DNA of 63,910 nucleotides, filler included, from Collodictyon triciliatum (taxonomy: Eukaryota): the NCBI GenBank assembly GCA_043381765.1. It is 11 parts of 11 records of this genome, joined end to end, with 100 filler letters (N's around TTAATTAATTAA, not from the genome) between each part and the next. Parts side by side here need not be neighbours in the genome. Positions count along the whole stretch, not along the records: positions 26,811 to 33,408 come from JBHJMP010004354.1; 10 more parts are not named here. One strand, given 5' to 3'. The position numbers and the translations under genes are program-made. A model generated the notes under the pieces. The model made no database searches. It worked only from the letters and a program-made list of their open reading frames with translations, and was not told the DNA's origin. This document shows, one piece after another, positions 27,009 through 28,705 of this stretch (positions are counted from its first letter, which is position 1; each line of letters starts with the position of its first letter).

Positions 27009-28705
27009 TTAAAAGAACTTTCTTGAGTATGTATCAGCGCTGTTAAAGTCCCTTGTCAAGAATATACTTTGTTTGCTCTCTGAACAATTGCATTCTTTAC
27101 ATATGAGACATCTATATACACTTTTTTTTTGCATTTCCTTTCAGTATCATATATTCCAGTTATTTTTTGCAGTTGCAACACATCTTGGAGGTTCTAAATT
27201 CATCTAAACTAACTGTTTCAAAACGTTTGGATAATATTTTTCGTAATCCTCTTCCGATTGTTGTCATAAAATGGTTCATCGGACATTTTCTGCTCCAGTC
27301 CCCATGCGCCAGTACAACATCCTTGCCAAATGTCTTTTCAATTCGGTCCATAAACAATTGCTCACTTGTTTTTGTATTAACATACTGTCTCCAAATCATC
27401 TTTCGAAAAGTTACGTGTTCATAAAATATGGATAACTCTATCTGGTATCTTGGTTTCATAGATAAATATTTTCGAAATTGTTCATAATCGACCGCGCATG
27501 AATTATTTTTACTCAGTTCTGTCTCTAAATCGATTAAAAATGCTCTTGATGTCCCAAACTGCTGATTCTCTTCAAAAGTCATGAGACCAAAAGAAACAAC
27601 ACTTTGTAAATCTGTTGCCATGCATATCCCTGAAGCATTGTACTTCTTTTTCTTTTTTTCTTTTGTGCAAGAATATTTTGTGATTTTTAAAGAGATTTGC
27701 TATCATGTCTTGTTTGGTGTGCCGTTTAACCTAATTTCTTACCTTTCTCATCCACCATGTAAACCAAATAAACTTGCCTGCGTCCACTCAAACTATATTT
27801 TTTTCGCTAATGAAGATAACTGCTCTTCGGAAAGCTCATCTATATAGACATACTCTCGGGGGTTTTTGATTATATTTGAATTTTGCATTGGAAATACCTT
27901 ACTTTTCAAACAATAATGACACCGCCAAGCCGTCTGTTTCTATCATATAACGAAAATTGTAGTCTCTTTGATGAAATACTCCATTCTTCATTTCAAAGAA
28001 CTTATCCCATAGTGTCTCTTTGCATCCTGATATATTCTTCAGTAATGATTTTCCGGATAATAGCAATGGAACTATCAAACATGCATTATCAAGGTTAATA
28101 TGACATGGTATAGCGTTAGTTCTTAAAGCGATTGGTCGAACTGGTTTGGTTCCAATGTCCTCAAAAATGCGATTCATTTAAATCAGACATGGAATGAACT
28201 TATTTAGATTGACTTTGACGTCATATTCGATACCATTTACAATATCGCTGGGAATGATATGATGCAAATGCATTATAGCCCATCCTTTGTATTGTTCCGG
28301 TATTTCGAATTTCTCGAAGATGGCTTTTCTAACTTTCGTAACTCTGCCTTTTTAATATGTTTCGTCATATTCTCATATTTAGGAACTGTTTGATTTATAA
28401 AGCGCAGTAACCTCTTTAGATAATGTTCCTTAATGTTACTATGATAAGCTGTTAGCATTTGCTTCTCCAAGTACGGTAATACATTGGGCAGTCTAACCAA
28501 CGGAAAGCGTTCTTCTCGGGACAAAAGGAATCGAAAATCAATGAGATAAAAAATCATCGTGTCTTTACTCAAACCTGGATGGTTTAAAATTGCGGATATC
28601 TTGTGAAGCTACTCCGACTGCCTTTAAAGCGTACAGAAAACACATTTCATCGATTGTTGGGAGTTGTTGTGATTTCAATATGTAACATCCCGCATTCTTC
28701 ATTAT
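27009..28705 (-). pseudogene. Fanzor1 (TnpB-like RNA-guided RuvC nuclease), 5'-truncated, with stops and frameshifts
   Basis: Collinear motifs: LPTIDE..., LPYLEKQMLTAYHSNIKEHYLKRLLRFIN, MNRIFE..PIALRTNAIPCHINLD, FRYMIETDGLAVSLLF, RuvC-I KNIV*VDAGK (D at 27782-84), LVYMVDEKGKKL, LETELSK, FYEHVTFRKMIWRQYVNTKTSE, GDWS, RuvC-II DEFRTSKMCCNC (E at 27199-201), RCLICKEC and RuvC-III TRDFNSA (D at 27048-50). Confidence 0.9.

Follow-up and report, generated by a model that had tools for sequence, protein, structure and literature searches.

The eukaryotic and giant-virus branch of the TnpB-type RNA-guided RuvC endonucleases is known as Fanzor1. In a window of 63,910 bases, meaning the whole stretch of DNA analysed here, the minus strand from 28687 to 26942 very probably holds a non-functional, 5'-truncated Fanzor1 pseudogene (the relic), the decayed remnant of one member of a DNA transposon family with many copies. 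Frameshift-aware alignment shows the relic to be collinear with residues 59-642 of P0001, an intact metagenomic protein of 648 amino acids (aa) found by a word-indexed search among longer proteins, and 332 of the 573 aligned codons are identical (58%). P0001 and P0275 (648 aa) are the nearest intact relatives, being complete and carrying the same insertion as the relic. Judged from its sequence, the relic is a dead Fanzor1 copy that cannot function, as a full-length uninterrupted reading frame is absent, and nothing suggests that it has a present function.

Detection and extent of the relic

The window strings together individual draft contigs of ~6.6 kb, ordered by falling size and joined via N44-TTAATTAATTAA-N44 linkers (e.g., the N runs at 26711-26810 and 33409-33508). 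The relic sits on the piece from 26811 to 33408, and its genuine context is thus limited to those 6.6 kb. P0001 is 63% identical to the relic's 179-aa piece (27160-27699), and a tblastn comparison of P0001 with the window returned this region in three frames (E 9e-70 and 1e-46) and nothing significant elsewhere. Similarly, a family hidden Markov model (HMM) derived from 67 full-length members was run on all 1938 stop-to-stop pieces of the window and matched the six pieces of the relic in collinear order (E 3e-16, 3.4e-8, 1.9e-26, 0.087, 4.6e-52, and 1.4e-8), while the best match outside the relic in the whole window reached E 0.15. As the family HMM matches the pieces of the relic only, the window contains one copy. 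Pfam gave no match for the six stop-to-stop pieces (0/6 at any family cut-off) and none for P0001, although the protein collection lists PF26935 for P0001. The original prediction had placed a Fanzor1 relic at 27009-28705. The relic is indeed found there, whereas the limits have to be moved, as homology runs from 28687 to 26942 and thus ~65 bases past the low coordinate. The relic and its motifs comprise:

26942..28687, minus strand: Fanzor1 pseudogene in ten frame segments, with 5 in-frame stops and 9 frameshifts
27929..27937, minus strand: TDG motif (IETDGLAVS), the Fanzor1 hallmark of the WED domain, kept (family alignment)
27776..27784, minus strand: RuvC-I D-A-G, catalytic Asp at 27782-27784 kept, family Pro changed to Ala (family alignment)
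27295-27303, minus strand: GDWS motif (translation)
27199..27201, minus strand: alternative Glu of RuvC-II (Ealt), six residues before the first CxxC (E-FRTSKM-CCNC)
27090..27180, minus strand: zinc-finger region with CCNC at 27169-27180 and CLIC at 27090-27101, broken by a TAA and a frameshift
27048..27053, minus strand: RuvC-III Arg-Asp (RDFNSA), kept (family alignment)

The motifs TDG, VDAG, GDWS, DEFRTS-CCNC, CLIC, and RDFNSA all lie on the minus strand and are collinear, in agreement with the series originally read from the DNA. The same holds for the claim that the acidic RuvC residues (Asp 27782-27784, Glu 27199-27201, and RD 27048-27053) and both CxxC pairs are kept. Among the 67 family members, the T of TDG is invariant, the D is found in 94%, and the G in 97%, and the Ealt column is invariant. 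The Pro of the DPG motif is carried by 97% of the members, including P0001, whereas the relic keeps the Asp and Gly and reads DAG, a change attributed to the decay of this dead copy. In the zinc finger, the Cys codons are at 27178-27180 and 27169-27171 (CCNC) and at 27099-27101 and 27090-27092 (CLIC), and the region is interrupted by the TAA at 27160-27162 and by a frameshift in an A9 run at ~27132.

In addition, an insertion of ~30 aa is common to the relic and P0001. It is located at 27540-27640 on the minus strand (P0001 residues ~411-443), between the RuvC-I region and the next helices, and is absent from the closest viral protein, L010. In the structural model of P0001, the insertion is of low confidence, with a predicted local distance difference test score (pLDDT) below 50 at residues 415-437.

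Assignment to Fanzor1

By sequence, profile, motifs, and the predicted fold of the intact sister, the family formed by the relic and P0001 is Fanzor1. An exhaustive HMMER search using the 179-aa piece as query returned 1425 proteins at E<=1e-3, 453 at E<=1e-10, and 3 at E<=1e-30. Among the solved structures, this piece matched SpuFz1 (E 1.7e-7), PpFz1 (8.9e-7), and GtFz1 (6.2e-6), the fourth row being a chance match (E 0.69), and the 92-aa piece carrying TDG aligned weakly to PpFz1 (E 0.063). When P0001 was compared with all PDB entries, three of three matches at E<=0.01 were Fanzor1, namely GtFz1 (2.1e-28), PpFz1 (2.7e-24), and SpuFz1 (3.7e-23). A profile of ten family sequences raised these to 4.8e-81 for PpFz1, 7.5e-79 for SpuFz1, and 2.1e-62 for GtFz1, followed by LaTranC at 0.01, and found no Fanzor2 or TnpB structure in the PDB at E<=1. 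The original prediction of a Fanzor1 relic is therefore borne out by sequence, by profile, by fingerprint motifs, and by the fold of P0001.

An AlphaFold2 model of P0001, predicted from the 67-sequence alignment, has a pLDDT of 85.1 and a predicted template modelling score (pTM) of 0.84. The top seven Foldseek matches of this model are all Fanzor1 (TMq 0.60-0.74, TMt 0.62-0.79), while the Foldseek TM values are 0.20/0.27 against ApmFz2, a mimivirus Fanzor2, and 0.19/0.31 against ISDra2 TnpB. The Fanzor1 fold, with WED, enlarged REC, RuvC, and zinc finger, is thus predicted for the intact sister P0001. Solved Fanzor1 proteins include SpuFz1 (PDB 8GKH and 9CEU-9CEZ), PpFz1 (9CF0-3), and GtFz1 (9CER-T), from which the relic differs in being broken and in having lost its first 58 codons. 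For SpuFz1, positions 3-600 of the profile align to residues 398-1028 of the chain in one stretch (E 7.5e-79), and the P0001 model reaches a TM of 0.72-0.79, yet identity in the structural alignment is ~19-20%.

Fanzor fingerprints named by Yoon et al. 2023 (PMC10711439) are a DPG at RuvC-I and a Glu six residues before the first CxxC, to which Fanzor1 adds the TDG of the WED domain. P0001 carries all three, and the relic carries TDG and the Glu, but has DAG. Also, the RuvC-III Asp follows the CxxC...CxxC array as expected of Fanzor1, with CCNC, CLIC, and RD at 27048-27180. The second CxxC is separated from this Asp by 16 residues in P0001, compared with 4-8 in the TnpB search pattern given in that paper (PMC10711439). 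A bacterial TnpB or a Fanzor2, introduced for instance by contamination, could be imagined from relatives filed under bacterial names of metagenome-assembled genomes (MAGs), such as P0003 (Synechococcus) and the loci L002-L007 (Planctomycetes, Fonsibacter, and others). Yet, this origin has next to no probability, since the family profile finds no such structure at E<=1, fold similarity is confined to TM values of 0.19-0.31, and both TDG and the Glu six residues before the zinc finger are present. Furthermore, the 'Fonsibacter' contig L005 is probably mis-binned (see below), and 29 'prokaryotic' Fanzor1-like sequences were likewise judged to be mis-binned by Yoon et al. 2023 (PMC10711439).

Lesions of the copy

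Frameshift-aware alignment to P0001 locates five in-frame stops in the relic:

28178..28180, minus strand: TAA at P0001 Tyr230
27899..27901, minus strand: TAA at P0001 Ser324
27788..27790, minus strand: TGA at P0001 Gly362, two codons before the RuvC-I Asp
27726..27728, minus strand: TAA at P0001 Tyr383, a Tyr kept by 93% of the family
27160..27162, minus strand: TAA at P0001 Gln568

The two stops cited earlier, TGA at 27788-27790 and TAA at 27160-27162, are thus real and are joined by three more TAA. The frameshifts and the lost N-terminus that had been described alongside them amount to nine frameshifts (near 28597, 28347, 27862, 27798, 27769, 27692, 27667, 27132, and 27032) and the loss of the first 58 codons.

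It could be speculated that the gene is alive and that its breaks are short introns and/or stops reassigned as in ciliate-type codes, as four of the five stops are TAA and a GTAAGG follows the codon preceding the stop at 27899-27901. However, the stops stand in place of four different residues (Y, S, G, Y, and Q), and the homology continues unbroken across places where the frame shifts by 1-2 bases, so that neither stop reassignment nor introns can account for the breaks. Moreover, no AG-ended interval past the GTAAGG restores the frame, related contigs have TAC at two of the stops, long host reading frames are closed by TAA, TAG, and TGA alike, and the first 58 codons are gone, leaving a living gene with a vanishingly small probability.

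The 67 full-length members (560-760 aa) were also aligned with the relic, in which X was set at 14 breaks. Of 55 columns conserved at >=80%, P0001 keeps 54, and the relic covers 51 and keeps 43; the eight that it has lost include Pro365 (DPG to DAG), Tyr383 (a stop), Arg388, and Glu391. These losses bear on the idea that much of the damage is an artefact of poor assembly and that the true locus carries a Fanzor1 that is still whole or almost so. By eye, six of the nine frameshifts touch or adjoin a run of >=5 A or C, and some of these may be assembly errors; furthermore, the contigs are short, with microsatellites at their ends, and the A9 run at 27119 is one A shorter in 114/212 of the depth in one public run (X2, see below). 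Still, five nonsense substitutions and three frameshifts outside homopolymers are untypical of assembly error, and homopolymer assembly error cannot explain these eight lesions. As 8/51 conserved columns are lost, including the DPG Pro, R388, and E391, and as the truncation coincides with the border of another repeat, seen independently in three runs, an intact locus is very improbable.

Related copies in public sequencing runs

Six public runs, none of them listed as RNA although X2 and X4 may be, share a small part of the words of the relic contig (0.05-0.07), and four of these coded runs, three freshwater metagenomes and one 'organism A' (X1, X2, X3, and X5), were compared. Contigs >=80% alike on 26811-32500 number 318 in X1, 639 in X2, 54 in X3, and 32 in X5, and pieces of 151-395 nucleotides (nt) over the Fanzor region differ at roughly 10-15% of letters. 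At 28178, a T>G change turning the stop into TAC (Tyr) accounts for all of the depth in X1 (41.3/41.3, 6 contigs), X2 (184.7/184.7, 14 contigs), and X5 (3 contigs). The corresponding T>G at 27726, again giving TAC (Tyr), is found in 41.5/41.5 of the depth in X1, 5.6/5.6 in X3, and 56.9/89.1 in X2, and at 27731 related contigs agree with P0001 in having the base that gives Arg. Behind 27768, an additional T is present in 95/156 of the X2 depth and 2.6/2.6 of the X3 depth. Since related contigs carry less damage at these sites, the relic is one decayed member of a multi-copy family.

Relatives in metagenomes and giant viruses

The closest proteins (P0001/P0275, P0004-P0011, and P0018) are encoded on metagenome contigs of <=4.2 kb, and P0276 is found on 20 contigs. 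P0005, P0276, and P0277 (590-634 aa) are complete and 41% identical to the relic. In a protein atlas, which provides leads only, P0001 lies beside PF26935 (DUF8286) clusters with a score of 0.99, whose labelled members are 92-100% viral and mostly Nucleocytoviricota. When IMG/VR was scanned using the family alignment, 594 pattern matches were obtained, of which at least 203 encode a relative and 80 were retained, on contigs of up to 267 kb. The best of these, L008/L010, are 47% identical to P0001 (294/632), and a scan for close relatives of P0001 on viral contigs found none. A metagenome scan added one distant locus (L001, 21% identity), and a scan of genome contigs added six (L002-L007, <=33% identity) on contigs filed as bacterial MAGs under the names Planctomycetes, Chitinophagia, Fonsibacter, Alphaproteobacteria, and Flavobacteriaceae. 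On the 'Fonsibacter' contig L005, 18 kb long, the Fanzor has as neighbours a Ser/Thr kinase and a fused type II topoisomerase (L005 146-3124 and 6626-7564), and this is probably a mis-binned contig of a giant virus or a eukaryote. The neighbours of L010, a fused mRNA capping enzyme, an Rpb7-like protein, and a helicase, fit a giant virus.

The viral PF26935 Fanzor1 genes (L008/L010, L012, and L013) share size class and motifs with the relic and P0001 and are their closest kin with a readable DNA context. Downstream of the viral Fanzor genes, the sequence ends in a conserved 28-nt motif (...GGCGTTTTAAATGTYCAAAGGTGTAAAA; GGCRTTTKAAATSTYNNNNGGTGTAAWA), which is present in 27/87 loci and flanks the Fanzor in 10 loci as an inverted pair 2.2-6.3 kb apart, identifying it as a terminal inverted repeat. 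A DDE_3+HTH transposase of ~340 aa is located beside the Fanzor in all three longer elements inspected (L010, L012, and L013), lying between the paired repeats in L012 and L013, while in L010 only the right-hand repeat was matched. Short viral elements contain the Fanzor only, and L012 and L013 also carry a DUF4379 zinc-finger gene. The viral genes are intact and reside in inverted-repeat elements, with a transposase in the three inspected, whereas the relic shows neither such an end nor a transposase.

The right ends of 20 Fanzor1 loci (18 from IMG/VR, L001, and L004) were aligned, and RNAalifold predicted only 6 pairs, all inside the inverted repeat, with no covariation. By eye, columns ~27-60 and 76-95 contain two hairpins upstream of the inverted repeat in which the sequence changes between loci and the pairing stays (CATCTT...AAGATG, CTGTTC...GAACAG, CCTCTT...AAGAGG, and GTAGG...CCTAC), which RNAalifold did not capture. 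Such hairpins would look like the expected guide-RNA scaffold.

Given these relatives, the relic might be a fragment left by a giant virus that integrated its genome, or the product of a virus-to-host transfer, and not a long-resident host transposon. The nearest taxon-labelled context is Nucleocytoviricota, as seen in the 92-100% viral atlas clusters (score 0.99), in the at least 203 IMG/VR relatives, the best of them 47% identical to P0001, and in the giant-virus-type genes around L010. Such an origin is nevertheless unlikely, as the 6.6-kb contig has no other virus-like trait (14/14 flanking frames without Pfam), the flanks are microsatellites and high-copy repeats, and many diverged copies occur per sample, as for a genomic repeat. 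In addition, scanning viral contigs for close relatives of P0001 gave no match, and the ~30-aa insertion of P0001 and the relic is absent from the viral protein.

Edges of the relic and its ancestor

Three features delimit the relic:

28687..28690, strand not assigned: 5' truncation point, with Fanzor homology from 28687 and an unrelated repeat from ~28690
28690..28955, strand not assigned: short high-copy repeat, unrelated to Fanzor, adjoining the truncated 5' end (public-run contigs)
26811..26941, minus strand: 3' flank to the contig end, 131 bases, the expected site of the right end and guide-RNA scaffold

The repeat at the 5' end, with pieces at 28705-28875 and 28749-28955, reaches a depth of up to 1513 in X2, compared with 100-365 across the Fanzor, and 51 nt of it (28737-28787) are 90% identical to 40617-40667 on another contig of the window. 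Loose ends are found at 28705 in X2, X3, and X5; their consensus still matches 28690-28700 over CCGCATTCTTC, beyond which it no longer resembles the Fanzor side. As a different repeat of higher depth starts at ~28690, the gene is cut off where the other repeat begins. The N-terminal piece (codons 1-58), which in P0001 opens with a basic MKKRKR stretch, was not found elsewhere in the window by tblastn or the family HMM.

At the other end, the 3' 220 nt fold no better than shuffles (z-score -0.38). R1, a sequence-only model of the viral right end based on 20 ends, gave 160 matches in the window at E<=10 and none on 26811-26960; its best match (28266-28357, plus strand, E 0.05) is attributed to chance, the DNA being AT-rich. 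A by-eye likeness of 26827-26857 to the viral inverted repeat was dropped because R1 gave no match on the 3' flank.

Fanzor1 has been associated with Mariner/Tc1-type and other eukaryotic transposons in two surveys (PMC10530073, PMC10711439). From this association and the arrangement of the viral elements, we infer how the ancestor of the relic may have worked, an account that stays by analogy as R1 misses the 3' flank. The intact ancestor would have encoded a nuclease of ~650 aa, with its guide RNA transcribed off the right end of the element, and, like its giant-virus relatives, the element would have had terminal inverted repeats and been moved by a DDE_3 transposase of the IS630/Tc1-mariner type. 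Once selection on the copy had ended, it very probably gathered stop codons and small indels, with conserved residues being replaced, and it lost its front end at the junction with another repeat.

Several points weigh against a decayed transposon copy. No target-site duplication, inverted-repeat pair, or transposase was found on the relic contig, and neither transposon ends nor guide-RNA structure were shown there, so that this part of the reading rests on relatives 40-47% identical to P0001. The assembly is a fragmentary draft, to which some of the six frameshifts at homopolymer runs may be due, and the base mending the frameshift at 27768 is found in 0/64.8 of the X1 depth, meaning that this lesion is not private to the relic. 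Finally, the relic contig is tied to the gene-bearing contigs of the window by one 51-nt repeat and similar microsatellites, which is a weak link.

Significance

The relic is an ordinary kind of object, a type of Fanzor1 remnant of which many protists and giant viruses have already yielded examples. Decayed CMe-1 elements of Cyanidioschyzon merolae, reportedly described by Bao and Jurka in 2013, are by description the same kind of object, a truncated, frameshifted, and dead transposon copy, though from another host and another subfamily. In eukaryotes and giant viruses, catalogued Fanzor1 genes and their dead copies run into the thousands; Jiang et al. 2023 list 3655 unique sequences, with as many as 122 copies in one genome (PMC10530073). 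The eukaryote lineage of the window carries or carried a Fanzor1 family. The suggestion that intact copies could represent a new lineage of programmable nucleases is weakly supported: an intact sister does exist (P0001/P0275), but the relic cannot function, and the family is large, is covered by an existing Pfam entry (PF26935, DUF8286), and has abundant members on contigs of giant viruses. While the relic offers nothing to engineer, the intact 648-aa metagenomic sisters could serve as candidates for nuclease tests.

It is mildly interesting that the closest relative, P0001, is metagenomic, while the nearest kin with a readable context (47% identical to P0001) are in giant viruses. This fits the proposal, made by Saito et al. 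2023, that viruses ferry Fanzors between hosts (PMC10432273). More tentatively, and with the odds rather against it, the relic and P0001/P0275 may form a distinct, insertion-marked branch of PF26935 Fanzor1, a multi-copy nuclear transposon of a freshwater eukaryote whose intact members would be active compact nucleases. If true, this branch would be a trace of the exchange of Tc1/IS630-borne RNA-guided nucleases between giant viruses and their hosts.

Genomic context

The other contigs of the window encode eukaryotic genes, including an F-box/armadillo (ARM) protein, the N-terminus of a P4-ATPase, an AMPK/CAMK-like Ser/Thr kinase, and a TPR protein. No close relative of any of them is present in 5.8 billion protein clusters; for the kinase, the best identity is 41%, to mixed taxa, and a search with the TPR open reading frame returned two uninformative matches. 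Of the 'uncharacterised protist genome' first proposed, the eukaryotic nature is hence upheld, its genes have no close relatives, and the protist part is plausible. Long host reading frames in the window end in TAA, TAG, and TGA alike. No rRNA or other Rfam family reached the gathering score in the whole window, and ARAGORN found no tRNA there. A mir-297 candidate at 32522-32636 scored 44 bits in Rfam against a gathering score of 90 and was rejected as an artefact of a (TATG)n microsatellite.

On the relic contig itself, 14/14 reading frames at 28.8-33.3 kb are without a Pfam family, translation table 4 gave no convincing gene in this interval, and a repeat search found no convincing inverted-repeat pair. 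Pfam thus indicates no virus-like feature on the 6.6-kb contig beyond the Fanzor. Microsatellites are found at many contig ends across the window, in which pieces standing side by side are not genomic neighbours. Finally, 29546-30603 is a discrete repeat unit of ~1.06 kb without Pfam, Rfam, or organellar-code signal, which each of the four public runs contains at ~95% identity and at very high depth (>1000 in X2), with loose ends at both borders.

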